Below, piece after piece: positions 779 through 63,757 of a stretch of DNA of 64,000 nt (positions are counted from its first letter, which is position 1; every line of letters begins with the position of its first letter). The position numbers and the translations under genes were made by a program. The stretch lies in the NCBI RefSeq assembly GCF_044647545.1, contig NZ_CP172818.1; one strand, written 5' to 3'. The notes under the pieces were generated by a model that worked only from the letters and a program-made list of their open reading frames with translations, did no database searches and had not been told where the DNA came from. Source of the DNA: Escherichia coli (GTDB lineage Bacteria > Pseudomonadota > Gammaproteobacteria > Enterobacterales > Enterobacteriaceae).

Positions 779-923
779 TTCCCGTGATGGATAAATAAGG
801 GTAAGATTCCGCGTAAGTATCGCGATCTTACCCGTAATATGTTTAATCAGGGCTATACTTAGCACACTTCCACTGTGTGTGACTGTCTGGTCTGACTGAG
901 ACAAGTTTTCAAGGATTCGTAAC

Positions 924-4597: not shown

Positions 4598-5950
4598 ATG
4601 CTGAGTTTTCTCTGGGATTTGGCTTCGTTCATCGTTGCACTGGGTGTACTTATCACCGTGCATGAATTTGGTCATTTCTGGGTTGCCCGGCGTTGTGGTG
4701 TTCGCGTTGAGCGTTTCTCAATAGGGTTTGGTAAGGCGCTCTGGCGGCGAACTGATAAGCTCGGCACCGAATATGTTATCGCCCTGATCCCGTTGGGCGG
4801 TTATGTCAAAATGCTGGATGAGCGCGCAGAACCGGTCGTTCCGGAACTCCGCCACCATGCCTTCAATAATAAATCTGTCGGCCAACGAGCGGCGATTATT
4901 GCCGCAGGTCCGGTTGCAAACTTCATTTTTGCTATCTTTGCCTACTGGCTGGTTTTTATTATTGGTGTGCCTGGTGTACGTCCGGTGGTTGGCGAAATAG
5001 CAGCCAATTCGATAGCTGCGGAAGCACAAATTGCACCAGGTACGGAACTAAAAGCCGTAGATGGTATCGAAACGCCTGATTGGGATGCCGTGCGTTTGCA
5101 GTTGGTCGATAAAATTGGCGATGAAAGCACCACCATTACGGTAGCGCCATTTGGCAGCGACCAACGGCGGGATGTAAAGCTCGATTTACGTCACTGGGCG
5201 TTTGAGCCTGATAAAGAAGATCCGGTAACTTCGCTGGGGATTCGTCCTCGTGGGCCGCAAATTGAACCTGTACTGGAAAATGTGCAGCCAAACTCGGCGG
5301 CAAGCAAGGCAGGTTTGCAAGCAGGCGACAGGATCGTTAAAGTCGATGGTCAGCCCTTAACGCAGTGGGTGACCTTTGTGATGCTTGTCCGGGATAACCC
5401 GGGTAAATCCTTAGCGTTAGAAATCGAAAGGCAGGGGAATCCCTTGTCTTTGACATTAATCCCGGAGAGTAAACCGGGTAATGGTAAAGCGATTGGTTTT
5501 GTCGGTATTGAGCCGAAAGTCATTCCTTTGCCAGATGAGTATAAAGTTGTACGCCAGTATGGACCGTTCAACGCCATTGTCGAAGCCACGGACAAAACGT
5601 GGCAGTTGATGAAGCTGACGGTCAGTATGCTGGGAAAATTGATCACCGGTGATGTGAAACTGAACAACCTCAGTGGGCCGATCTCTATCGCCAAGGGGGC
5701 TGGGATGACAGCGGAACTCGGGGTTGTTTATTACCTGCCGTTTCTTGCGCTTATTAGCGTGAACTTAGGGATAATTAACCTGTTTCCGTTGCCCGTACTT
5801 GACGGGGGGCATCTGCTGTTCCTTGCGATCGAAAAGATCAAGGGCGGACCGGTATCCGAGCGGGTTCAAGACTTTTGTTATCGCATTGGCTCGATTCTGC
5901 TGGTGCTGTTAATGGGGCTTGCACTTTTCAATGATTTCTCTCGGTTATGA
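4598..5950 (+). CDS. rseP: regulated intramembrane proteolysis zinc metalloprotease RseP
   Basis: 450 aa from ATG at 4598 (MLSFLWDL...); HEFGHF zinc motif; PDZ region; track ORF starts 15 codons upstream. Confidence 0.92.
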
Positions 5951-20382: not shown

Positions 20383-21681
20383 ATGACACTCACGCTCAAT
20401 AGACAACTTCTCTCCTCACGCCAGATTCTGGTGGCCTTTAGCGGCGGGCTTGACTCCACCGTTCTGCTGCATCAGTTGGTGCAGTGGCGGACGGAAAATC
20501 CGGGCGTCACTCTACGCGCTATCCATGTGCATCACGGTTTAAGTGCCAATGCCGATGCCTGGGTTAGGCATTGCGAGAACATCTGCCAACAGTGGCAGGT
20601 GCCGCTGGTGGTCGAGCGCGTGCAACTTGCGCAAGAAGGACTGGGCATTGAGGCCCAGGCGCGGCAGGTGCGTTATCAGGCATTTGCTCGTACCCTGTTA
20701 CCCGGTGAAGTGCTGGTCACCGCGCAACATCTCGACGATCAATGTGAAACCTTTCTGCTGGCGCTAAAACGCGGTAGCGGCCCTGCCGGGCTTTCGGCTA
20801 TGGCGGAAGTCTCGGAGTTTGCCGGAACGCGGCTTATCCGCCCGTTGCTCGCCCGCACGCGGGGAGAACTGGTGCAGTGGGCGCGTCAGTATGATTTACG
20901 CTGGATTGAAGACGAAAGTAATCAGGATGATAGCTACGATCGTAACTTCCTGCGCCTGCGCGTGGTGCCGTTATTGCAGCAGCGTTGGCCGCATTTTGCC
21001 GAAGCAACGGCCCGCAGCGCTGCGCTTTGCGCTGAACAAGAGAGCCTGTTAGATGAACTGCTGGCGGATGATATAGCGCACTGTCAAAAGCCGCAGGGGA
21101 CGCTGCAGATTGCGCCAATGCTGGCGATGAGTGATGCCCGCCGCGCGGCGATTATCCGCCGCTGGCTGGCAGGGCAGAATGCACCGATGCCTTCCCGCGA
21201 CGCGTTGGTGAGGATCTGGCAGGAAGTGGCGCTGGCGCGGGAAGATGCTTCCCCCTGTTTACGTCTGGGCGCGTTTGAAATCCGCCGCTATCAGTCGCAA
21301 CTGTGGTGGATTAAATCCGTTGCCGGGCAAAGCGAAACCATTGTGCCGTGGCAGACGTGGCTACAACCGCTGGAATTACCGGCGGGACTGGGAAGTGTAC
21401 AGCTTACTGCGGGAGGCGATATTCGCCCTCCGCGTGCAGACGAAGCGGTCAGCGTGCGTTTCAAAGCGCCAGGATTGCTGCATATTATCGGGCGCAACGG
21501 CGGACGTAAGCTGAAGAAAATCTGGCAAGAGCTGGGTGTGCCGCCGTGGCTACGTGACACCACGCCACTGCTGTTTTATGGCGAAACGTTGATTGCGGCG
21601 GCAGGGGTATTTGTGACGCAAGAAGGTGTGGCTGAAGGTGAGAATGGCGTCAGTCTTGTCTGGCAGAAAACGCTTAGTTAA
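20383..21681 (+). CDS. tilS: tRNA(Ile)-lysidine synthetase
   Basis: 432-aa ORF; PP-loop SGGLDS motif near N-terminus. Confidence 0.93.
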
Positions 21682-24031: not shown

Positions 24032-24063
24032 CCCGTCTTGAGACAGAAACAAATGAAATATTG

Positions 24064-24166
24064 CCTCATGCGCTGCGCTTATCAGGCCTAAAGCATACAA
24101 TGCAATATTTTGAATTAGCACAATTTTGTAGGCCGGATAAGGCGTTCACGCCGCATCCGGCATTTT
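24064..24166. repeat. BIME: two REP palindromic units in opposite orientation
   Basis: ...GCGCTGCGCTTATCAGGCCTA... and ...TAGGCCGGATAAGGCGTTCACGCCGCATCCGGCA... Confidence 0.7.
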
Positions 24167-39938: not shown

Positions 39939-40610
39939 ATGTCAGGTCTGCCACAGGGCAGACCAACGTTTGGCCCCCTTTAAAAAAAAAAAGACACCAA
40001 TACAACACAACAAAAAAAAAGCGCTGCGCAAAACGTGAGCGCGGTGGTGGCGTATGACTTATCTGCCCAAATGCTGGATGTCGTGGCACAAGCTGCCGAA
40101 GCCGGGCACCTGAAAAATATCGCCACCCGCCAGGGATATGCCGAAAGTCTGCCATTTGCCGATAACGCATTTGATATTGTTATCAGCCGTTATTCTGCCC
40201 ATCACTGGCATGATGTTGGTGCAGCACTGCGAGAAGTGAATAGGATATTGAAACCTGGCGGTAGGCTGATTGTGATGGACGTAATGTCTCCGGGTCACCC
40301 AGTGCGCGACGTCTGGTTACAGACGGTAGAAGCATTACGCGATACCTCTCACGTACGAAACTACGCCAGCGGTGAGTGGTTGACGTTAATCAATGAAGCC
40401 AATCTGATAGTTGATAATTTAATTACAGATAAGTTACCGCTGGAATTTTCTTCATGGGTCGCGAGAATGCGTACGCCAGAAGCGTTAGTAGACGCTATTC
40501 GCATTTACCAACAGAGCGCATCGACAGAGGTGAGAACGTATTTTGCCTTGCAGAATGACGGCTCTTTCACCAGTGATATCATCATGGTAGAAGCACATAA
40601 AGCGGCATAA
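39939..40610 (+). pseudogene. yafE: truncated/interrupted SAM-dependent methyltransferase
   Basis: ATG at 39939 is in frame with the methyltransferase body (GTG 40035 to stop 40610) but separated by a 48-nt A-rich tract with in-frame TAA (39981-39983); body lacks Gly-rich motif I. Confidence 0.7.
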
Positions 40611-40657
40611 ATAAAAAAGGCACCGGGGGAATCGGTGCCTTTTGATTATCTGATTTG

Positions 40658-42016
40658 TCAGGAATCTGGCATGTTGTTGTTTTTCACAAACAACGTCAGC
40701 TTATCGCCTGGTTGCAGATTCGCAGTGTCGCTGTTCCAGCGCATCACATCTTTGATGTTCACGCCGTGGCGTTTAGCAATGCTTGAAAGCGAATCGCCTT
40801 TGCGCACACGATACGTAATGCTATCGCTGTTGTTTGCCAGTCGCTGTGCGCTACTGCCTGCGCCAATCGTCAAACTTTGGCCTGGCTTCAGCTTAGATCC
40901 GCGCAGTTTGTTCCACTGCTGCAAATCTTTGGTGCTTACGCCGAGACGTGAAGCGATACTTGAAAGCGTGTCGCCAGAGCGTACGGTGTAAACACGGCTG
41001 TTAAGCGGCGTATTGTCGGCAACCAGCGTCGACTGTACAGCAGCAATTTCGCCTGAAGCCAGAGATTCACGCAGTTGATCTGCATGCTTCTTTGGCACCA
41101 TCACGTACTGCGGACCACTTGCGCCCAGCGTGGAGCCTTTCACGCCTGCGTTGAATGTCTTCAGCTTGCTGACGGAAATCCCCGCCATATCTGCAACCTT
41201 CGCCATTTCAACCGGGCTGCTCAGGTGCACACGCGCCAGAGCACGGCTTTCATCGGTCGTTGGCAGACGTACGCCATAACGCTTGCTGTTTTTGAGAATA
41301 TCACTCAATGCCAGCATTTTAGGCACGTACTGCTTCGTTTCCTGCGGCAACGGTAACGACCAGAAGTCCGTGGATTTCCCACGCGCTTTGTTCGTTTTAA
41401 TTGCCTTCATGACCCGACCTTCGCCGCTGTTATAAGCCGCTACGGTCAGAAGCCAGTCGCCGTCAAACATCTTGTTCAGACGCTGCATCATGTTCAGCGC
41501 GGCAGTTGTTGAAGCAACAACATCGCGACGCGCGTCATAATTGCGGGTCTGTTTCAAACCATAATTGCGCCCCGTGCTCGGAATGATCTGCCAGATGCCC
41601 GCGGCATTGGCGCCAGACGTTGCGTGAGGATCAAAAGCGCTCTCCACTATGGGTAGTAGTACCAGTTCCATAGGCATGTTACGTTTTTTAACTTGCCCGG
41701 CTATCCAGTACATATACGGCTCTGCCCGTAAAGTTACATCGTGGAGATAGCTCTTATTGCGTAAATATTTCTGTTTCTGTTCGCGAATCCGGTCGTTTTC
41801 CGGAATTCCCATCTTTAGCTCGTCGCCAATGAAAGCCCACAAGTCACCATCTGGCGCGATAGACGTCCCATCGTCCATCCATCGTGCCTGACTTGTAAAC
41901 TTTGCTGCTTCCCCTTGACCAGCTGCAGAAAGGCTCTGTGCGTGCTGTTGAACGTTGCCGGTGCTCTGGCAACCCACGAGCAGGACAGAGGCGAGTAATA
42001 TCGCTTTTGCCTTCAT
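40658..42016 (-). CDS. mltD: membrane-bound lytic murein transglycosylase D
   Basis: 452-aa ORF; lipobox LVGC; C-terminal LysM repeats. Confidence 0.93.
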   Translation of the reverse strand: MKAKAILLASVLLVGCQSTGNVQQHAQSLSAAGQGEAAKFTSQARWMDDGTSIAPDGDLWAFIGDELKMGIPENDRIREQKQKYLRNKSYLHDVTLRAEPYMYWIAGQVKKRNMPMELVLLPIVESAFDPHATSGANAAGIWQIIPSTGRNYGLKQTRNYDARRDVVASTTAALNMMQRLNKMFDGDWLLTVAAYNSGEGRVMKAIKTNKARGKSTDFWSLPLPQETKQYVPKMLALSDILKNSKRYGVRLPTTDESRALARVHLSSPVEMAKVADMAGISVSKLKTFNAGVKGSTLGASGPQYVMVPKKHADQLRESLASGEIAAVQSTLVADNTPLNSRVYTVRSGDTLSSIASRLGVSTKDLQQWNKLRGSKLKPGQSLTIGAGSSAQRLANNSDSITYRVRKGDSLSSIAKRHGVNIKDVMRWNSDTANLQPGDKLTLFVKNNNMPDS

Positions 42017-42087
42017 GTGTGTGTCAATAGTTGCTTAAAAGACGACCGATCATAACGGCGAACGGAGCCGATGACAAGAAAGTTTTA

Positions 42088-42846
<759 letters not shown>

Positions 42847-42876
42847 TTACCTCTCAGTGTGAAACGGAAGGTTGTG

Positions 42877-43599
42877 ATGAAACCGGCAAGAGTCCCTCAA
42901 ACTGTCGTGGCTCCTGATTGCTGGGGCGATTTGCCCTGGGGAGAGCTTTATCGCAAGGCGCTGGAGCGCCAGCTCAACCCGTGGTTCACTAAAATGTATG
43001 GTTTTCATCTGCTTAAGATTGGCAATTTAAGCGCAGAAATCAATTGCGAAGCGTGCGCGGTTTCTCATCAAGTGAATGTTTCTGCGCAAGGACTGCCCGT
43101 CCAGGTGCAGGCGGACCCACTTCATCTTCCTTTTGCCGATAAATCCGTTGATGTTTGTCTACTGGCACATACATTGCCGTGGTGCACCGATCCGCATCGT
43201 TTATTGCGTGAAGCCGATCGGGTACTGATTGATGATGGCTGGCTGGTGATTAGTGGCTTCAATCCCATAAGTTTAATGGGATTACGCAAACTTGTACCGG
43301 TATTGCGCAAAACCTCGCCCTATAACAGCCGGATGTTTACTCTGATGCGGCAGCTGGACTGGCTCTCTTTGTTGAATTTTGAAGTGCTACACGCCAGCCG
43401 TTTCCACGTTCTCCCGTGGAACAAACACGGTGGAAAACTATTGAATGCGCATATTCCTGCGCTTGGTTGCTTACAACTTATTGTCGCCCGGAAACGGACT
43501 ATTCCTTTAACGCTAAATCCGATGAAACAGAGTAAAAACAAGCCACGAATTCGCCAGGCGGTTGGAGCCACCCGGCAATGTCGTAAACCACAGGCTTAA
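42877..43599 (+). CDS. yafS: putative SAM-dependent methyltransferase
   Basis: 240 aa from [22 protein letters not shown]; track ORF starts 6 codons upstream. Confidence 0.85.
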
Positions 43600-44063
43600 A
43601 CTTCGACTTGATAGCCCGTATCTTCCAGTGTGGGATTCATCGCTGCGGCACGAGCCAGTTCATCGCAACGTTCGTTTTCTGGATGACCGGCATGGCCTTT
43701 AACCCATTCCCATTTGATTTGATGCTGCCCCAGCGCAGCATCAAGACGTTGCCAGAGATCGACATTTTTTACTGGTTTTTTGTCTGCTGTTTTCCAGCCA
43801 CGTTTTTTCCAGTTATGGATCCACTGGGTGATACCCTGGCGGACATACTGGCTGTCGGTACTCAAAATGACTTCGCAATGTTCTTTTAACGCCTCCAGCG
43901 CGACAATAGCGGCCATCAACTCCATACGGTTGTTGGTGGTGCGGGTGTAGCCTGCGCTAAAGGTTTTCTCGCGTCCGCGATAGCGTAAAATAGCGCCGTA
44001 ACCCCCAGGTCCAGGATTACCCAGACACGAACCATCGGTGAAAATTTCTACCTGTTTAAGCAT
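43596..44063 (-). CDS. rnhA: ribonuclease HI
   Basis: 155 aa from [23 protein letters not shown]; track ORF extends 24 codons upstream. Confidence 0.95.
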
Positions 44064-44127
44064 CTCTGGTAGACTTCCTGTAATTGAATCGAACTGTAAA
44101 ACGACAAGTCTGACATAAATGACCGCT

Positions 44128-44859
44128 ATGAGCACTGCAATTACACGCCAGATCGTTCTCGATACCGAAACTACCGGTATGAACCAGATTGGTGCGCACT
44201 ATGAAGGCCACAAGATCATTGAGATTGGTGCCGTTGAAGTGGTGAACCGTCGCCTGACGGGCAATAACTTCCATGTTTATCTCAAACCCGATCGGCTGGT
44301 GGATCCGGAAGCCTTTGGCGTACATGGTATTGCCGATGAATTTTTGCTCGATAAGCCCACGTTTGCAGAGGTAGCCGATGAGTTCATGGACTATATCCGC
44401 GGCGCGGAGCTGGTGATCCATAACGCAGCGTTCGATATCGGCTTTATGGACTACGAGTTTTCGTTGCTTAAGCGCGATATTCCGAAGACCAATACCTTCT
44501 GTAAGGTCACCGATAGCCTTGCGGTGGCGAGGAAAATGTTTCCCGGTAAGCGCAACAGCCTCGATGCGTTATGTGCCCGCTACGAAATAGATAACAGTAA
44601 ACGAACGTTGCACGGGGCATTACTCGATGCCCAGATCCTTGCGGAAGTTTATCTGGCGATGACTGGTGGTCAAACGTCGATGGCTTTTGCGATGGAAGGA
44701 GAGACACAACAGCAACAAGGTGAAACAACAATTCAGCGCATTGTGCGTCAGGCAAGCAAGTTACGCGTTGTTTTTGCGACAGATGAAGAGCTTGCGGCAC
44801 ATGAAGCCCGTCTCGATCTGGTGCAGAAAAAGGGCGGAAGCTGCCTCTGGCGGGCATAA
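44128..44859 (+). CDS. dnaQ: DNA polymerase III epsilon subunit (3'-5' proofreading exonuclease)
   Basis: 243 aa from [17 protein letters not shown] (Exo I motif); divergent from rnhA. Confidence 0.95.
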
Positions 44860-44991
44860 ATACCTGTAAAAGGCGCTAAAATTAGCGACTTGGGCGATTT
44901 TTGCAGCAAACGATTCAAAAGATGAGAAAAACCGTTGACGAAGGGTGAGGCAATCCGTAATATTCGCCTCGTTCCCAACGGAACACAACGC

Positions 44992-45068
44992 GGAGCGGTA
45001 GTTCAGTCGGTTAGAATACCTGCCTGTCACGCAGGGGGTCGCGGGTTCGAGTCCCGTCCGTTCCGCCA
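44992..45068 (+). tRNA. aspV: tRNA-Asp (GTC)
   Basis: Identical in sequence to the aspU copy at 36941-37017. Confidence 0.95.
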
Positions 45069-45097
45069 AATTCACTCATGAAAATGAGTTCAGAGAA

Positions 45098-45127
45098 CCG
45101 CAAGATTTTTAATTTTGCGGTTTTTTG
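45098..45127 (+). terminator. putative terminator after aspV
   Basis: CCGCAA ... TTGCGG hairpin followed by T6. Confidence 0.5.
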
Positions 45128-45393
45128 TATTTGAATCCCGCCATTTCTCTGTTCAATGATTTTACTCTAGCGTAAGTGCGTGATTCTCGCTTGTTGTCTC
45201 ATTCATTAAAATTCAATAATGATATCGAGCCATTCAGCTTAAATATATTTTCAGAGAATAATTTTATATTGATTAAGTGAATGTATATTTCAAATTGATT
45301 TTATTTGTTATTATTTAAGTGGGGTATATAATTAGAGTTCGTTATCAGTGCTAAATATTCTAATCATTATGACAGGCGAGGGAGTGTCCGATT

Positions 45394-46179
45394 ATGAATT
45401 CAAAAAAGGTTTGTTGCATATGTGTGTTATTCTCGCTGCTTGCAGGATGTGCCTCTGAATCTTCTATTGATGAAAAGAAGAAAAAAGCTCAAGTCACACA
45501 AAGTAATATTAATAAAAATACCCCCCTGCAACTGACAGACAAAGATTTATTCGGTAATGAAACCACTCTGGCCGTATCCGAGGAGGATATTCAAGCTGCG
45601 CTTGATGGAAATGAGTTCCGCGTTCCCCTTAATTCTCCTGTAATACTTGTTCAATCCGGCAACCGCGCACCGGAAACCATTATGCAGGAGGAGATGCGAA
45701 AATATTATACTGTTTCCACATTCTCTGGTATCCCGGACAGGCAAAAGCCTCTGACTTGTAACAAAAACAAAGATAAAAATGAGAACGAGGATGTTGCCAG
45801 TGCTGAAAATATGAACTGGATGCAGGCATTGCGTTTTGTGGCTGCGAAAGGGCATCAGAAAGCGATTATTGTTTACCATGATACGTTGCAGACAGGAAAA
45901 TATGACACTGCACTGAAATCAACAGTATGGTCCGATTATAAAAATGAAAAAATTACTAACACAATCTCACTGCGCTATCTGGTGCGATTCACGCTGGTGG
46001 ATGTAACTACAGGTGAGTGGGCTGCCTGGTCGCCGGTGAATTATGAATATAAAGTGCTTCCACCATTGCCCGGCAAGAATGAAGCCAGTACGACTGATAT
46101 GACAGAGCAGCAAATCATGCAACTTAAGCAAAAGACCTATAAAGCGATGGTAAAAGATTTGGTTAACCGCTATCAATAA
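45394..46179 (+). CDS. yafT: putative lipoprotein
   Basis: 261-aa ORF; signal peptide plus lipobox LAGC; AT-rich codon usage. Confidence 0.85.
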
Positions 46180-46328
46180 TAAATTATATCTGCCGCCAGG
46201 AATTTCTGGCGGCAATAATACAGAATTCTTTGCATAAGAAATTTTTTCCTGACAAAGACTGTGCAAAAAAGGACATGGAATCCGGAGTTAAAAACTGTTT
46301 GTTTTAGAATATTTAATTATTTAACTGC

Positions 46329-46796
46329 TTAATCTTCCTTGCGAGAAATATATTCATTATTACATTTCATGCCATTTTTAATATAGGTTGCTCCTGGGAA
46401 AATCCCCGTGTTATTACCGCAGGGGTGATAATTATCATTAACATATCCTGTGACAAAAGGAGCTATTAAAGGTGCTATTACGATAGCTATTAGTAAAAAT
46501 ATAAGAGTTAGCTGTATTGTTATGTCTGTGGCGAAATTGATTACCTTTGTTTTTTTTATTAAGAATGATTTTATTATCGTTAGTAAAATTACATGAATAT
46601 TTAACAAGGAAAACGATATGAAACCGAAGCATAGAATCAACATTCTCCAATCATAAAATATTTCCGTGGAGCCTTTTATTATTGAATATAGAGGTTTAAT
46701 TCCGGTAAAAAACAAAGATGCATTGAATGCAGGGAAAAATAATATGGCTATAAAAAACATCGAAAGAAACTCTTTCAATTTAACATGTAAACGCAT
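46329..46796 (-). CDS. ykfM: putative inner membrane protein
   Basis: 155-aa hydrophobic, AT-rich ORF; start may lie a few codons upstream. Confidence 0.65.
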   Translation of the reverse strand: MRLHVKLKEFLSMFFIAILFFPAFNASLFFTGIKPLYSIIKGSTEIFYDWRMLILCFGFISFSLLNIHVILLTIIKSFLIKKTKVINFATDITIQLTLIFLLIAIVIAPLIAPFVTGYVNDNYHPCGNNTGIFPGATYIKNGMKCNNEYISRKED

Positions 46797-46810
46797 AGTT
46801 AATCCTCATA

Positions 46811-47098
46811 TCACAGGGGGGTGTTAAGAACATACATAAATGGAGTCATGTTTTCCCTTTTCCATTTATCAAGTTCCTGTTGCCGTTTTAGTCCATCTCT
46901 AATTGCATCTTTTAATTTTTCTGATAAATGGTATTGAACATCGATTTCATTTAAAACAACTGTACACACTATCCCCGTAAGTAAAATTGCTCCTCCTACA
47001 AGAATTACTGGAAGGCCAAAACTAAGACAGGCAAAAGAAGCCAGGCTTCCAATAGCGGTTGCAACACCGCCTGCAATCACTGCTTTGGCCACATCCAT
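46811..47098 (-). CDS. yafU: putative small membrane protein
   Basis: 95-aa ORF with a hydrophobic helix; start uncertain. Confidence 0.6.
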   Translation of the reverse strand: MDVAKAVIAGGVATAIGSLASFACLSFGLPVILVGGAILLTGIVCTVVLNEIDVQYHLSEKLKDAIRDGLKRQQELDKWKRENMTPFMYVLNTPL

Positions 47099-47162
47099 TG
47101 AAAAATCACCAAGAAAATTAACCAGATCTCGCTCTGAACTCGTAATAAATTCTATGGTTCTG

Positions 47163-47439
47163 CTGATTTAACCGCAGAAAAGTTCGCCACAGCAATCCGA
47201 AACCACTGGCACGTGGAGAATAAGCTGCACTGGCGTCTGGACGTGGTAATGAATGAAGACGACTGCAAAATCAGCGAAAGAGGAAACGCCGCAGAATTAT
47301 TTTCAGGATACGGCGCATCGCTATTAATATTTTGACGAATGATAAGGTATTTAAGGCAGGGTTAAGACGTAAGATGCGAAAAGCAGCTATGGACAGAAAC
47401 TATCTGGCGTCAGTCCTTGCGGGGAGCGGGCTTTCGTAG
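47163..47439 (+). mobile_element. yafF: H-repeat (ISAs1-family) transposase C-terminal fragment, frameshifted
   Basis: Translation ...[40 protein letters not shown]... then, after a frame change, ...[36 protein letters not shown]. Confidence 0.75.
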
Positions 47440-52180: not shown

Positions 52181-52291
52181 GGTCTTTTCTCCCCAGGGAG
52201 AGGGCCGGGTGAGGGTAACAGCCTGCACCTTTGTACTTTTTAATCAATCTTCGCCGGGGGCCATGCGCTCCCGCTGTTGTGGAGGTTACCC

Positions 52292-53924: not shown

Positions 53925-54203
53925 TTTACCCAAATAGCGCCGCGTGAGTTCCAGTTCTCTCAAATCGTAAAAGTTTATCGGTAAGTTTGTAAATCAGGAT
54001 CCAGTCCGGTTCGACATGAGCATCGCGATAACCTTTCCATGAACCTTGCAGCGGGTGGTCTTTATAAACAGCTGGAAGCAGTAAAGTATTATTGATAAGA
54101 GCGTCATAAGATATTTCAATTTATTCATATCCTTATGACGCTTTTGTGCAAGTTTTACATCCTTTGAAAATTGTCCCGAGTATTCAATATCCCTTTGAAT
54201 CAT
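53925..54203 (-). pseudogene. yafQ: YafQ mRNA-interferase toxin, frameshifted
   Basis: First 36 codons from ATG at 54203 match YafQ; frame breaks near 54094-54096; the +1 frame continues with ...YKDHPLQGSWKGYRDAHVEPDWILIYKL...FERTGTHAALFG to 53925. Confidence 0.8.
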
Positions 54204-54205
54204 AT

Positions 54206-54466
54206 TTAAATTCCTAATTTATCAAATAAATCATCGGCGTCTTTGGCCTTATGAATACCAACGCCAGCTTCGCTGTTTTTGATTGATTGAATAGTTAATT
54301 GATTAGGCTCGCGTAAATCAAACGGCAATGCCTTTTCACGCGCGACCTTTGTGAGGGTTATGCGAACCAGGTCAGAGATGGTCAGCCCCATCCCGGCCAG
54401 TACGTCCGCCGCCTGATTCTTCAGATCTTCATCGATTCGGGCGCGAACAAACGCGTTAGCAGCCAT
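54206..54466 (-). CDS. dinJ: DinJ antitoxin
   Basis: 86-aa ORF MAANAFVRARIDEDLKNQAADVLAGMGLTISD; immediately upstream of yafQ. Confidence 0.92.
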   Translation of the reverse strand: MAANAFVRARIDEDLKNQAADVLAGMGLTISDLVRITLTKVAREKALPFDLREPNQLTIQSIKNSEAGVGIHKAKDADDLFDKLGI

Positions 54467-54498: not shown

Positions 54499-54675
54499 CT
54501 TGAATTGTAGCTCAAATGAGCAACAGCGACAATCCATGAGTAATTTAATAAACGGATGTTTTTACATAATTAACTGAAATATATTTATTAATTTTATAAT
54601 AATGGTTTATTAAGTTTGTTCAGGTACGGGCCGGGATACACTGCAACATCAATGCATGACCAGCCATTATTGAGA

Positions 54676-55425
54676 ATGTCTTTGCCGTCGATTCCCTCTT
54701 TTGTGTTGTCGGGATTACTGTTGCTTTGCTTGCCGTTTTCTTCATTTGCCAGCGCCACCACATCACATATCTCTTTCAGCTACGCCGCCCGCCAGCGGAT
54801 GCAAAACCGTGCGCGTTTATTAAAACAGTACCAAACCCATCTGAAAAAACAGGCCAGCTATATTGTGGAAGGCAATGCCGAAAGCAGAAGGGCGCTACGC
54901 CAGCACAACCGGGAGCAGATAAAACAGCATCCAGAATGGTTTCCTGCGCCGCTCAAGGCGAGTGACAGACGCTGGCAGGCGCTGGCGGAAAACAACCACT
55001 TTTTAAGCAGCGATCACCTGCATAACATCACCGAAGTGGCGATTCACCGCCTGGAGCAGCAGCTTGGCAAGCCTTATGTCTGGGGCGGCACGCGGCCCGA
55101 TAAAGGCTTCGACTGTAGCGGGTTGGTTTTTTATGCCTACAACAAGATCCTTGAGGCGAAGCTCCCGCGCACAGCCAATGAGATGTATCACTACCATCGG
55201 GCAACGATTGTGGCGAACAACGACCTGCGCCGGGGAGATTTGCTGTTTTTCCATATTCACAGCCGCGAGATAGCCGATCATATGGGGGTGTATCTGGGAG
55301 ACGGTCAGTTTATCGAGTCACCACGTACCGGCGAAACCATTCGGATAAGCCGGTTAGCTGAACCTTTCTGGCAGGATCATTTTTTAGGCGCGCGGCGGAT
55401 TTTGACGGAAGAGACGATTTTGTAG
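54676..55425 (+). CDS. yafL: NlpC/P60-family putative peptidoglycan endopeptidase
   Basis: 249 aa from MSLPSIPSFVLSG; signal peptide; conserved Cys (DCSGLV) and His. Confidence 0.85.
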   Translation: MSLPSIPSFVLSGLLLLCLPFSSFASATTSHISFSYAARQRMQNRARLLKQYQTHLKKQASYIVEGNAESRRALRQHNREQIKQHPEWFPAPLKASDRRWQALAENNHFLSSDHLHNITEVAIHRLEQQLGKPYVWGGTRPDKGFDCSGLVFYAYNKILEAKLPRTANEMYHYHRATIVANNDLRRGDLLFFHIHSREIADHMGVYLGDGQFIESPRTGETIRISRLAEPFWQDHFLGARRILTEETIL

Positions 55426-57182
55426 GCAGGGATCTCCCCCACAACACTCAACGCCCCCATAATCTTCAACTCCAGCTCGTCCGGCACTTCGTTATACGAC
55501 AGCACATGCAGCCCCGGCGCAAACAATCTCGCATAGCGCGCCAGCAAAGGGCGCAACTGCGGTGGCACCAGCAGCACAGGGTCTTTCCCCGCCGCTTTCA
55601 TCTGCTCCTTCACCTGCGGCATCGTACTCTGGAACTGGTTGAGCATATTCGGGTCTACCGGCACGCTGTCGAGCATCACTTTGCCGGCCTGTTGCGCCTG
55701 ATTCACCACGTTGGTCAGCAGATTTTCCAGCTCATTATTCAGCGTATACACCGTCAGCTCCTGCTTGCGAACGAACGGATGGGTAATGCTGCGCCGCAGC
55801 GCCAGGCGCACATCTGCCGCCAGCAGAATATGATCTTTGGTCACCGCACTACTGGCGACCAGCACGGTGGCGATGGTGACGATATCGCGCAGGGAAACGC
55901 CTTCAGTCAGCAGCGCCCGGTACACTTTCAGCAACTGGCTGTAATTCAGCGCCGCGCTCAAATCCTCCGCCAGTCGCGGTGCCATCGACGACAGGCGGTT
56001 ATGCAACTGCGTAATATCGTCATAGTTAAATAAATCAGGAATATAGCTGCGCACAATCTTATTCACATGCGTGGCAATTACGCTGGCGCTGTCGATCACC
56101 TGATACCCCATATTCAGCGCCTTCGCTTTCTGCGCAGGCTGAATCCAGGTGACCGGCATCCCATATGCCGGGTCATTCCCCAGTACGCCGTCAATCTCGC
56201 CGTAGGTTTCGCTGGAGGGCAGGGCCATCAGTTTATCCGCCGGAATATCCGCTTCATCAGCCTTAATGCCGTTGATGAAAATGGCGTACTGGCTGGGCTT
56301 GAGACGGAAGTTTTCCCGAATACGGATCTCCGGCAGCAGCACGCCGTTACCGTCGGATATCACCTGCCGCACGCCGCGAATCCGCTGGGTGAGCGGGTTC
56401 CCCTGCGCTTTGTCCACCAGCGCCACCAGCTTGTAGCCGAGGCTTAAGCTGATGGGCTCGATCAGCGGAATGGTTTCCCAACTGACCTGTTGCTCGCTGG
56501 TTTCGGTGATGGTTCGGGTCAGCGTTTCGAGGCTTTTCTCCTCCGCCTCCGCCGCCTGCGGGCGTTTGCTCATCCGCCAGCCGGTAAAGCCAAGCAGGGC
56601 GCTGAACAGCAAAAATGGCAGATGCGGCATCCCCGGCACCACCGCCAGCACAAACATGATCCCGGTGGCGGTGTAGAGCACCGACGGACTTGCCAGCAGC
56701 TGGTGGCGCACGTCATGGGCGATATCGCCGTTGTCGCTGACGCGGGTGACGATAATTGCCGCCGCGGTGGAGAGCAGCAGGGACGGGATCTGCGCCACCA
56801 GCCCGTCGCCGATAGTCATCAGCACATATTGCTGGAAGGCGGCGTCGGCGCTCAGGTTGTATTTGAAGATCCCGATACAGACGCCGCCGATCAGGTTGAT
56901 CGCCAGAATCATCATCCCGGCGATGGCATCGCCGCGCACAAACTTCGATGCCCCGTCCATTGCGCCGTAGAAATCGGCCTCGCTGGCAACATCTTTACGC
57001 CGGGTTTGTGCCTGCGCCTGGTTGATCAATCCGGCGTTAAGATCGGCGTCAATCGCCATCTGTTTACCGGGCATCGCGTCCAGGGTAAAGCGGGCAGAAA
57101 CCTCGGAAATACGCTCGGCCCCTTTGGTGACGACGATAAAGTTGATTGTCAACAGCGTCAGTAAATCCGAGCGTGAAAGCAT
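55377..57182 (-). pseudogene. lfhA: FlhA-like flagellar export protein remnant (Flag-2 cluster), 5'-truncated
   Basis: About 600-aa ORF with FlhA-family similarity (…FVRGDAIAG…, C-terminal cytoplasmic domain) lacking the N-terminal TM region and a credible start. Confidence 0.8.
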
Positions 57183-57912
57183 TATCGCCGCGCTACACGG
57201 GCAGTCGATTTTTAACGGTGGCGGGCTGTCGCCGTTAAATAAAATCAGCCCGTCTCATCCGTCAAAACCTGCCACCGTGGCAGTGCCGGAAGAGACGGAG
57301 AAAAAAGCGCGCGACGTCAACGAGAAAACGGCGCTGCTGAAGAAGAAATCCGCCACCGAGCTTGGCGAGCTGGCGACCAGTATCAATACCATCGCCCGTG
57401 ATGCGCATATGGAAGCGAATCTGGAGATGGAGATTGTTCCCCAGGGATTACGCGTGCTGATTAAAGACGACCAGAACCGCAATATGTTCGAACGCGGCAG
57501 CGCACAGATTATGCCGTTCTTTAAAACTTTGCTGGTGGAGCTTGCGCCAGTGTTCGACTCGCTCGATAACAAAATTATTATTACCGGGCATACCGATGCG
57601 ATGGCCTACAAAAACAATATCTACAATAACTGGAACCTTTCGGGTGACCGCGCGCTTTCGGCTCGTCGGGCGCTGGAAGAGGCAGGAATGCCGGAAGATA
57701 AAGTGATGCAGGTGAGCGCAATGGCGGACCAGATGCTGCTGGACGCGAAAAATCCGCAAAGCGCGGGCAACCGGCGCATTGAGATTATGGTGCTGACTAA
57801 AAGCGCGTCCGATACGCTGTATCAATACTTTGGTCAGCATGGGGATAAAGTGGTGCAGCCGCTGGTGCAAAAGCTGGATAAGCAGCAGGTGCTTTCACAG
57901 CGAACGCGTTAA
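57157..57912 (+). pseudogene. lafU: MotB/OmpA-like flagellar motor protein remnant (Flag-2 cluster), 5'-truncated
   Basis: C-terminal OmpA-like domain (NWNLSGDRALSARRALEEAG...NRRIEIMVL); no N-terminal TM segment or start codon; 5' boundary approximate. Confidence 0.7.
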
Positions 57913-60424: not shown

Positions 60425-60691
60425 ATGGAATGGTACATGGGCAAATATATTCGTCCCTTATCCGATGCGGTATTTACCATCGCATCTGATGACCTGTGGA
60501 TCGAGAGTTTAGCGATCCAACAATTACACACCACGGCAAATTTACCCAACATGCAACGCGTAGTAGGGATGCCAGATTTACATCCCGGACGCGGCTATCC
60601 GATTGGCGCAGCGTTCTTCTCCGTAGGCCGTTTTTACCCGGCAAGACGTCGCGGTAACGGTGCTGGAAACAGAAACGGGTCGCTACTCTGA
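60425..60691 (+). pseudogene. ykfJ: RtcB-like RNA ligase N-terminal fragment
   Basis: 88-aa ORF with RtcB-type motif GMPDLHPGRGYPIGAAF, then terminates; overlaps prfH. Confidence 0.7.
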
Positions 60692-61160
60692 CACACTGCG
60701 TTCGGCGCTGATTTCTCTGGATGGCGATAACGCATGGGCTCTAAGCGAAAGCTGGTGTGGCACTATCCAGTGGATTTGTCCGAGTCCGTATCGGCCTCAT
60801 CATGGGCGCAAAAACTGGTTTCTGGGCATTGGGCGTTTTACCGCTGATGAGCAGGAACAATCCGACGCGATCCGTTATGAGACGCTGCGTTCGTCGGGGC
60901 CGGGCGGTCAACATGTCAATAAAACCGACTCGGCGGTACGCGCCACGCATCTGGCATCCGGTATTAGCGTGAAGGTTCAGTCAGAGCGCAGTCAGCATGC
61001 TAACAAACGGCTGGCGCGATTACTGATTGCCTGGAAGCTGGAACAACAGCAACAGGAAAATAGCGCGGCGCTGAAATCGCAGCGGCGAATGTTCCATCAT
61101 CAAATTGAACGTGGCAATCCGCGACGGATATTTACCGGGATGGCTTTTGTTGCTGTGTAA
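60660..61160 (+). CDS. prfH: peptide chain release factor homolog RF-H (likely N-terminally truncated)
   Basis: 166-aa ORF with GGQ motif ([20 protein letters not shown]). Confidence 0.85.
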
Positions 61161-61580
61161 TTGAAGAATGAAACTCCCGCCGTTTTCTATATGAAAGCGC
61201 GCGCAAAACGAAAGAATCTCATTTTATCTCTCTTCCCTTTTTTTGATAAATCTTTCTTGTAGAACTTCTGTTGCTTCATCGCGCCGGTTTTTGGCTTAGT
61301 TTGGCCATTCGCCCGTTTTTGATCTTTTTGGCGTCGGGTGGTAACGCCAAACTCACTTTTTCCTCTTAGGCATAATATGGTTTGTCCGCCGGGGGGCTAG
61401 TTTTGGGCGGAAAAGAGAAAAACCCTTTCCAAATTGTTTTTCGACTGCGATCTGGGTCTTTCGGTAACACTTTCCTACATAGGTATTTTTTTTTTATTTT
61501 TAAAAAAAAAAAAAATCAAAAAAAGATAGCCATTGGCTTCAAACAGAAGTCCACGCCCGCAGGCGTGGACATTATCGTAA

Positions 61581-63038
61581 TTACTTCGCCGGAATTTCTT
61601 TCAGCAGTTCAGTCAGCAGTGTCCAGTAATGGCCTACGCTTTCGATGTGAACTTGCTCATCCGGAGAGTGTGGACCGGTGATTGTTGGCCCGATAGAAAC
61701 CATGTCCATTTCCGGATACGGTTTTTTGAACAGACCACATTCCAGGCCCGCGTGGATAATCTGGATGTTCGGCGTCTTGTTGAACAGACGCTGATAGGTT
61801 TCACGTACCAGATGCATCACCGGAGAATTAGCGTCCGGCTGCCAGCCAGGATATGCGCCTTTCGCTTCGGTTTTCGCGCCAGCCAGTTTACCCAGCGAAT
61901 CCAGCATGCTCACCACGTAGTCTTTACCGCTGTCGATCAGTGAACGGATCAGGCAGTGAATTTCTACGTTATTGTCAGTCATGGTCACCACACCGACGTT
62001 CAGGGAGGTTTCGACCACACCTTTTGCAACGTCGGAATTGCGGATCACACCGTTCGGGGTGGCGTTCAGCAGACGAATAAAGGTATCGCGAGATTTCGCA
62101 ATCAGGGCAGCTTTATCGTTCGCAACAGAGTCCAGCAGCAATGCCAGATTTTTCTCTTTCTCTGCCAGCTCGTTTTTCAGGATCTCCTGATAGGTATTCA
62201 CCAGAGATTTCAGTGTATCGACTTTATCAGCTGCGACAGCAATGGTCGCAAAGGCTTCACGCGGGATGGCGTTACGCAGTGTGCCGCCGTTGAAATCAAT
62301 AAGACGCAGGTCCAGTTCTTCTGCATGACCCGCCAGGAAGCGCACCAGCAGTTTGTTGGCATTACCCAGGCCAACGTGGATTTCACCGCCGGAGTGACCG
62401 CCTTTCAGACCTTTTAAGGTTAACTTGAAGGTTTCAAAACCAGCTGGAACCGCTTCACGATCTAAATGCAGGTTGGAGGTGAAGTCGATACCTCCCGCAC
62501 AACCCATGTAGATTTCACCTTCTTCTTCGGAGTCGGTGTTAATCAGAATATCAGCCTGCAACCAGTTGCTCTGTAAGCCAAAAGCACCGTCCATACCGGC
62601 TTCTTCGGTCATGGTCAGCAGCACTTCCAGCGGGCCGTGAACCACGTTTTCGTCAGCCAGAACCGCCAGTGCAGAGGCCATACCAATGCCGTTATCCGCA
62701 CCCAGCGTGGTGCCGCGTGCTTTAACCCATTCGCCATCAATATAAGGCTGGATAGGATCTTTAGTGAAGTCATGCACGGTGTCGTTATTTTTTTGCGGCA
62801 CCATATCGAGGTGGGCCTGCAAGACGACCGGTTTACGATTTTCCATACCTGCGGTAGCAGGTTTACGAATCAGGATATTACCTACCTGATCGCGTTCGAC
62901 ATGGAAACCTTTCTCTTTTGCCCAACCAACAATGTATTCAGCGAGTTGCTCTTCATGATAGGACGGGTGAGGAATAGAACAGATTTTGGCAAAAATATCC
63001 CACAGCGGCTGTGGAGATAATTGAGACAGTTCAGACAC
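61581..63038 (-). CDS. pepD: cytosol nonspecific dipeptidase (aminoacyl-histidine dipeptidase)
   Basis: 485-aa ORF MSELSQLSPQPLWDIFAKICSIPHPSYHEEQ; M20 family. Confidence 0.95.
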   Translation of the reverse strand: MSELSQLSPQPLWDIFAKICSIPHPSYHEEQLAEYIVGWAKEKGFHVERDQVGNILIRKPATAGMENRKPVVLQAHLDMVPQKNNDTVHDFTKDPIQPYIDGEWVKARGTTLGADNGIGMASALAVLADENVVHGPLEVLLTMTEEAGMDGAFGLQSNWLQADILINTDSEEEGEIYMGCAGGIDFTSNLHLDREAVPAGFETFKLTLKGLKGGHSGGEIHVGLGNANKLLVRFLAGHAEELDLRLIDFNGGTLRNAIPREAFATIAVAADKVDTLKSLVNTYQEILKNELAEKEKNLALLLDSVANDKAALIAKSRDTFIRLLNATPNGVIRNSDVAKGVVETSLNVGVVTMTDNNVEIHCLIRSLIDSGKDYVVSMLDSLGKLAGAKTEAKGAYPGWQPDANSPVMHLVRETYQRLFNKTPNIQIIHAGLECGLFKKPYPEMDMVSIGPTITGPHSPDEQVHIESVGHYWTLLTELLKEIPAK

Positions 63039-63298
63039 GTTAAGTCTCCTTGTCGATCACCCGCAAAACAGTATTGCAGGTCACAGGGTTAGCAGAAAAT
63101 GTTGTCAACACAAGACAGGCTTGCGAGATATGTTTGAGAATACCACTTTATCCCGCGTCAGGGAGAGGCAGTGCGTAAAAAGACGCGGACTCATGTGAAA
63201 TACTGGTTTTTAGTGCGCCAGATCTCTATAATCTCGCGCAACCTATTTTCCCCTCGAACACTTTTTAAGCCGTAGATAAACAGGCTGGGACACTTCAC

Positions 63299-63757
63299 AT
63301 GAGCGAAAAATACATCGTCACCTGGGACATGTTGCAGATCCATGCACGTAAACTCGCAAGCCGACTGATGCCTTCTGAACAATGGAAAGGCATTATTGCC
63401 GTAAGCCGTGGCGGTCTGGTACCGGGTGCGTTACTGGCGCGTGAACTGGGTATTCGTCATGTCGATACCGTTTGTATTTCCAGCTACGATCACGACAACC
63501 AGCGCGAGCTTAAAGTGCTGAAACGCGCAGAAGGCGATGGCGAAGGCTTCATCGTTATTGATGACCTGGTAGATACCGGTGGTACTGCGGTTGCGATTCG
63601 TGAAATGTATCCAAAAGCGCACTTTGTCACCATCTTCGCAAAACCGGCTGGTCGTCCGCTGGTTGATGACTATGTTGTTGATATCCCGCAAGATACCTGG
63701 ATTGAACAGCCGTGGGATATGGGCGTCGTATTCGTCCCGCCAATCTCCGGTCGCTAA
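63299..63757 (+). CDS. gpt: xanthine-guanine phosphoribosyltransferase
   Basis: 152-aa [27 protein letters not shown] motif [11 protein letters not shown]. Confidence 0.95.

Follow-up and report, generated by a model that had tools for sequence, protein, structure and literature searches.

In Escherichia coli K-12 MG1655 the transposase gene rayT (b0228) lies between yafL and the lfhA pseudogene, whereas in the 64,000-nucleotide stretch of E. coli DNA analyzed here (the window) the same two genes appear as convergent reading frames whose 3' ends overlap. The question raised by this locus is whether such a junction represents the site without its transposase or a sequence of another origin. 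The initial annotation, which rightly placed rayT at this position in K-12, had read the overlap as an empty site or a precise loss of the rayT module, offering a direct view of REP/RAYT presence-absence polymorphism.

The junction between yafL and lfhA in the window

In the list of open reading frames, the yafL frame extends from 54616 to 55425 on the plus strand and an FlhA-like frame of 601 aa from 55377 to 57182 on the minus strand; their common interval, 55377..55425, reproduces the overlap of 49 nt that had been described. The features of the junction and of related positions elsewhere in the window are collected in Table 1. The gene upstream of the junction is annotated as yafL (WP_010349174.1) in the ST648, STLIN_13 and PD23 genomes, and over its final 300 nt it matches theirs at 100% identity. 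The 3' end of lfhA is 100% identical over 404 nt to that of ST648 and PD23, but only 96.8% identical to that of the rayT-bearing STLIN_13. lfhA is annotated as incomplete or as a pseudogene in ST648, STLIN_13 and K-12, and in the window its remnant is followed by lafU', which lies in the open reading frame 57022..57912, and then by dinB.

Table 1. Positions in the window of the yafL-lfhA junction, its flanking genes and the sister scars
Feature	Position	Strand	Remarks
yafL (NlpC/P60 C40 peptidase), 249 aa	54676..55425	+	CDS of annotated length; TAG at 55423-55425
Junction filler GCAGGGATCTCCCCCACAACA, 21 nt	55426..55446		From alignments; 101 nt here in ST648-lineage genomes
Non-native lfhA run-on, 22 codons and TGA stop	55377..55445	-	Antisense of yafL
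lfhA' remnant, lateral-flagellar FlhA lacking the N-terminus	55446..57182	-	Pseudogene left by the Flag-2 deletion
lafU' (mbhA), other edge of the Flag-2 deletion	57127..57912	+	Placed from the ST648 lafU annotation
Sister scar, GGGG missing	820..828		pyrH terminator hairpin; K-12/ST648 divergence point, 824
Sister scar A, lossy copy of 47 nt including poly-A runs	39975..40021		Corresponds to the first part of the ST648 insert
Sister scar C, lacking TTT and one G	52194..52207		Inside the boxC-like hairpin that follows gmhA
Sister scar F, about 360 nt from about 810 nt of ST648	61165..61523		Metal-dependent hydrolase gene and neighbor

The overlap results from the loss of the native lfhA stop, after which the frame runs on into the antisense strand of yafL. 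The intact LfhA of PD23 (697 aa) ends in ...KIMGALS followed by TGA, and the same ...MGALS* ending was found in nine Citrobacter genomes, whereas the translation of the frame in the window ends in ...KIMGALSVVGEIPAYKIVSSVKIRRAPKK*, with VVGEIPAYKIVSSVKIRRAPKK as its 22 non-native codons. Once a stop has been lost, about 20 further codons are expected by chance.

The two frames had been described as having nothing between them. They do overlap, yet the 21 nt of GCAGGGATCTCCCCCACAACA, which occur as a single copy within the 64-kb window, lie between the stop of yafL and the point where homology to lfhA of relatives begins, and nothing else does. The 101 nt found at this place in the ST648-lineage genomes, which are the nearest relatives of the window and have no rayT, consist of the lfhA stop and an intergenic spacer of 97 nt, in which there is a boxC-like hairpin. 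The spacer of ECONIH1, MS6198, ST648 and PD23, which in ECONIH1 occupies 278699-278795 of NZ_CP009859.1, contains a 10-bp GC hairpin (-36 kcal/mol, z -3.48), whereas no significant fold was found at the window junction (z 0.16), nor was any terminator-like site. We tentatively place this spacer with the boxC family, as a putative truncated copy of that palindromic repeat. A second boxC-like copy is found downstream of gmhA in ST648 genomes, and a full-length copy of 165 nt is present in Pseudocitrobacter vendiensis. BoxC is a listed repeat family of E. coli (PMC2267715).

Compared with the ST648-type allele, with which it shares both the yafL and the lfhA flanks (100% identity for 300 nt of yafL and 404 nt of lfhA), the window lacks 80 nt, including the whole hairpin and the TGA of lfhA, and has five additional changes at the edges. 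At the left edge two bases differ from ECONIH1 (GACGG to GCAGG) inside otherwise identical DNA; at the right edge CATCA-ACTC has become CACAACACTC, through two substitutions and a 1-nt insertion, and the flanking DNA is again otherwise identical. These changes at both edges rule out a clean deletion. Where the ST648-type allele has MGALS-TGA and the 97-nt hairpin spacer, only TCTCCCCCA is left in the window, a right-hand remnant of the ST648 spacer, next to an lfhA end (...ACTCAACG) that is also of the ST648 type.

All 127 genomes with the flank type of the window carry the full spacer. A comparison across strains, which the initial annotation had proposed for the direct yafL-lfhA junction, returned the window junction in 0 of 5,426 complete E. 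coli genomes, and two scans of JGI metagenome contigs gave 0 matches to the junction or to its right half alone. Manual comparison was also made with the products expected from a deletion between the direct repeats TCTCCC...TCTCCC and from an inversion of a hairpin arm, and neither reproduced the sequence of the window. An ordered-subsequence test of the 21-mer against the ST648 spacer was passed, as it was by 73% of shuffled 21-mers, and hence does not discriminate.

Sister scars in the window and the origin of the junction

Comparison of the window with ECONIH1 (ST648) revealed 100.000% identity over 40022-47161 and 61524-63363 and 99.98% over 1-38538, and between 55433 and 60643 the two sequences are identical save within 12 nt of the junction. 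The remaining differences that consist of indels or garbled sequence (at 824, 39975, 52194 and 61165) all fall at structural breakpoints between K-12-type and ST648-type genomes. At scar A 172 nt of ST648 sequence are cleanly deleted in K-12, between end points identical to those in the window; at scar C the cassette differs between the K-12 and ST648 types; and scar F, where K-12 has 36 nt, contains dozens of deletions of 1-4 nt and ends in TTTTTTTTTTATTTTTAAAAAAAAAAAAAA (poly-T/poly-A). Scars A and F were contiguous in 0 of the 5,426 genomes. Nor did these genomes contain a contiguous 100% match to the window, and its genome was absent from the GTDB species representatives; exact protein look-ups with the 601-aa lfhA frame and with a frame from scar F gave no match, and a 191-aa YafE fragment matched an unrelated Logan contig with a normal, frameshifted yafE.

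Larger segments follow a similar pattern. The 23.5-kb T6SS island of ST648/ECONIH1 is absent from the window, which is K-12-like in this respect (the T6SS-less structure occurs in 370 genomes), and its place is taken at 47162-47420 by a 260-nt ISAs1-like remnant about 95% identical to that of K-12. One kb of rtcB is also absent, as in K-12. ST648 alleles reach within about 20 nt of the T6SS and rtcB breakpoints, a pattern that natural recombination would rarely give.

Three further observations concern individual genes of the window or of its relatives. The deletion in rtcB, of 1,020 nt, lies near 60643 (60425-61160) at an imperfect repeat (ACCCGGCA/ACCCGACA) with flanks identical to ECONIH1, and leaves an 88-aa YkfJ-like frame and a 166-aa PrfH, matching the ykfJ/prfH pseudogene arrangement of K-12. 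The gene yafQ, for the toxin of the DinJ-YafQ pair (53994-54203, minus strand), is frameshifted and encodes a frame of 69 aa with an aberrant C-terminus, next to dinJ at 54206-54466; as the frameshift is also annotated in ST648, ECONIH1, STLIN_13 and PD23, it is a trait of the lineage, in which dinJ is an orphan antitoxin. The ST648 record NZ_CP008697.1 has frameshifts in dinB, yafP and ykfM, which are probably errors of that record since neither ECONIH1 nor the window has them.

The window comes from an ST648-lineage, phylogroup-F-like E. coli of the minor rayT-less allele class, in which the real sequence at the site is the 97-nt boxC-like hairpin spacer followed by the native TGA of lfhA. 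The whole set of anomalies is in keeping with an assembly of such a genome on a structural frame resembling that of K-12, and the limits of the collapsed yafL-lfhA segment are also those of the rayT cassette in K-12; we consider it probable that the junction is one more scar of this kind. The ST648-type reads would have been rebuilt on the K-12-like frame, perhaps through reference-guided consensus or polishing, a process that would keep the single-base alleles of ST648 throughout, drop large insertions present only in the sample, leave medium-sized ones garbled or lossy, and cut out with ragged edges the sequence present only in the frame. At yafL-lfhA the spacer would thus have collapsed to the garbled 21 nt, the lfhA stop would have gone with it, and the dead lfhA frame would then read through 22 codons antisense to yafL, yielding the 49-nt "overlap".

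Artefacts of reference-guided consensus or polishing combine single-base alleles of the sample with a foreign structure and with garbled inserts ending in homopolymers, as the window does. We infer the mechanism from these sequence relationships, which were themselves observed directly, and the likeness to such artefacts does not extend to MG1655 as the frame: MG1655 was excluded as the literal reference by the ISAs1 remnant at 47162-47420, which shows about 5% divergence from its K-12 counterpart. Nor would the process have been uniform, since the ST648-specific cassette of the gmhA-yafJ spacer was almost fully recovered and is nearly intact in the window. Against an artefact it may also be said that palindromic elements are prone to deletion in vivo and that complex deletion junctions do occur.

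These last points favor a real deletion, private to this strain, in which hairpin-promoted slippage or error-prone repair would have removed the boxC-like spacer (about 80 bp net) together with the lfhA stop, leaving a small scrambled junction. Strong GC hairpins are deletion-prone, and the hairpin of the ST648 spacer is a strong one; small deletions are also present in the second boxC-like hairpin (52194-52207) and in the terminator hairpin at 824, and the flanks are otherwise perfect. A single slippage event, however, cannot give five additional base changes across both edges; neither the 5,426 genomes nor the metagenome contigs share the junction; the same window contains lossy poly-A/T copies that cannot be natural; and every anomaly coincides with a structural breakpoint between K-12 and ST648. 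We thus regard such a deletion as unlikely. Were the junction real, its sole effect would be the loss of a hairpin, a putative terminator, that probably terminates yafL transcription, and no further functional consequence would follow because lfhA is already a pseudogene.

Cassettes at the yafL-lfhA site

The location of the junction, between yafL and lfhA/fhiA, is that of the REPtron. In contrast to the REPtron, the window has no open reading frame for an HUH/Y1 transposase (RayT, about 165 aa), with 21 nt between yafL and lfhA, and no REP/BIME palindromes flank the junction. Both absences had been noted initially and were upheld: tblastn of K-12 RayT against the whole 64 kb gave a best E value of 0.26, and a fuzzy scan with the Y, Z1 and Z2 REP consensus sequences detected no REP at 55300-55500, the only REP-like sequences in the window being those at 24060-24161. 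By comparison, rayT occupies the yafL-lfhA site in K-12, Sakai, LR-28, STLIN_13, E. albertii and other Escherichia.

Variation at this site has been described before. Among 110 E. coli/Shigella genomes, tnpAREP was found between yafL and fhiA in 74, had been precisely excised with retention of the BIMEs in 7 (B2 strains), and was replaced by hicAB in 24, mostly B1 (Ton-Hoang et al. 2012, NAR 40:3596, PMC3333891); E. coli genomes with and without RAYT have also been compared for their REPIN content (Park et al. 2021, PMC8049555). Our census covered 5,426 RefSeq complete E. coli genomes, 5,387 of which hold the locus, and distinguished four states of the gap that sum to roughly that number. The gap contains rayT in 3,569 genomes (66%), hicAB in 1,371-1,480 (about 25-27%), a Nissle-type REP-only sequence of 278 nt in about 190-206 (about 4%, counting only records with at least 95% identity, as this query is confounded by REP copy number), and the 97-nt spacer with its GC-rich hairpin, found in the ST648 lineage, in 127 (2.3%). 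The proportions for rayT, hicAB and the REP-only gap reproduce the published 74/110, 24/110 and 7/110. The presence or absence of RAYT between yafL and lfhA and the two main replacement alleles have thus been known since 2012; the site is polymorphic, as the initial annotation held, but the polymorphism is not new. The boxC-like spacer is a fourth, minor occupant of this cassette site, sometimes beside an intact Flag-2 cluster.

An instance of the latter is PD23, which has ST648-type flanks and in which an intact Flag-2 cluster (flhA, 697 aa, flhB, fliR, fliQ and fliP; locus L006, 4424-8681) adjoins the boxC-like spacer. It follows that the Flag-2 deletion and the type of cassette assort independently within the ST648-type allele group.

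The window falls into neither of the published rayT-less classes, as it has neither flanking BIMEs nor hicAB. The B2-type excision allele, represented by Nissle and D10, leaves a REP-only gap of 278 nt (range 274-278 nt), whereas the gap in the window is 21 nt long and free of REP sequences, and the hicAB replacement of OkiPb01714 is a cassette of 792 nt, for which the 21-nt gap is too small.

Outside E. coli, rayT was found at the site in E. albertii, in two other Escherichia species and in Pseudocitrobacter faecalis, and not in Citrobacter. The Citrobacter genomes have a gap of 41-42 nt between yafL and lfhA (38-39 nt between stops, both of them intact), which contains a conserved 9-bp GC hairpin, AAGGCGGTGC...GCACCGCCTT (-22.5 kcal/mol; loci L017-L023, L026 and L028, at about 4762-4805), a likely bidirectional terminator. 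This arrangement is the genuine empty, pre-RAYT state of the site. It resembles the window in that yafL and lfhA are immediate convergent neighbors without a cassette between them, but it has the hairpin and intact stops, whereas the window has no hairpin and has lost a stop.

Two side observations came from the relatives. Across yafL-lfhA, the DNA of Pseudocitrobacter is 90-94% identical to that of E. coli, compared with about 76-83% for Citrobacter, and the cassettes there are of E. coli type, namely the 165-nt boxC-like palindrome in P. vendiensis (L011, 4739-4903) and rayT in P. faecalis (L012); this closeness points to horizontal exchange of this stretch of DNA or else to a kinship nearer than expected. 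On the other hand, a 3.4-kb contig assigned to a Clostridiales genome (SFGJ01000062.1, "MAG: Clostridiales bacterium W0P5.003"; L009) carries yafL, with 99% amino acid identity to that of E. coli, hicAB and lfhA, and is almost certainly E. coli contamination of the bin.

The proposal that the junction is an empty RAYT site, or the product of a precise rayT-REP excision that left a REPtron target or footprint, can be weighed against these alleles. It draws on the presence of rayT here in K-12 and in most of the genomes surveyed, on STLIN_13, a close relative that shares the yafL allele of the window and has rayT, and on the two ends of the collapsed segment, 55426 and 55448, which correspond to positions 20463 and 21364 of the K-12 locus, the boundaries of its rayT cassette. 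The right edge of the junction nevertheless consists of TCTCCCCCA and ...ACTCAACG, which are of the ST648 type, while rayT-type alleles end in ...CCTACATCAACG; the junction is therefore not a rayT excision. The lfhA flank, ST648-type throughout and divergent from the rayT-bearing STLIN_13, also speaks against it. In the published alleles, B2 excision of rayT leaves the BIMEs, with a gap of 274-278 nt, and B1 strains have hicAB instead (PMC3333891). The pre-insertion site of Citrobacter, finally, shows a hairpin-containing gap between intact stops and no overlap. That the rayT module was precisely lost is thus unsupported, and the empty-site reading is largely refuted; we consider it very improbable. 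An ancestral and functional overlap of the two convergent genes has a next to negligible probability and was rejected, for although both frames are open throughout the overlap, lfhA is an N-terminally truncated pseudogene, its run-on is of the length expected by chance after loss of the stop, the intact LfhA of PD23 and 9 Citrobacter species ends in MGALS* at 38-97 nt from the yafL stop, and no relative or outgroup in the PD23 and Citrobacter comparisons has the overlap.

Significance of the junction

Most likely, the overlapping junction without its spacer does not reflect real biology. It seems rather improbable that the junction is genuine and that a boxC-like palindromic element was recently lost there in a near-precise way; if so, the alleles with and without it would offer a rare and direct before/after view of how boxC-like repeats, a poorly understood family, turn over, at a site where at least four cassettes (rayT/REP, hicAB, REP-only and boxC-like) are found. 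Because the window carries scars of reconstruction, odd findings at 824, 39975-40021, 52194-52207, 60643 and 61165-61523, as well as the missing T6SS, should be distrusted. The junction matters little as biology, the rayT polymorphism having been described in 2012. The useful outcomes are that a fourth occupant of the cassette site has been counted, that the arrangement of Citrobacter has been identified as the genuine empty site, and that suspect coordinates have been flagged.
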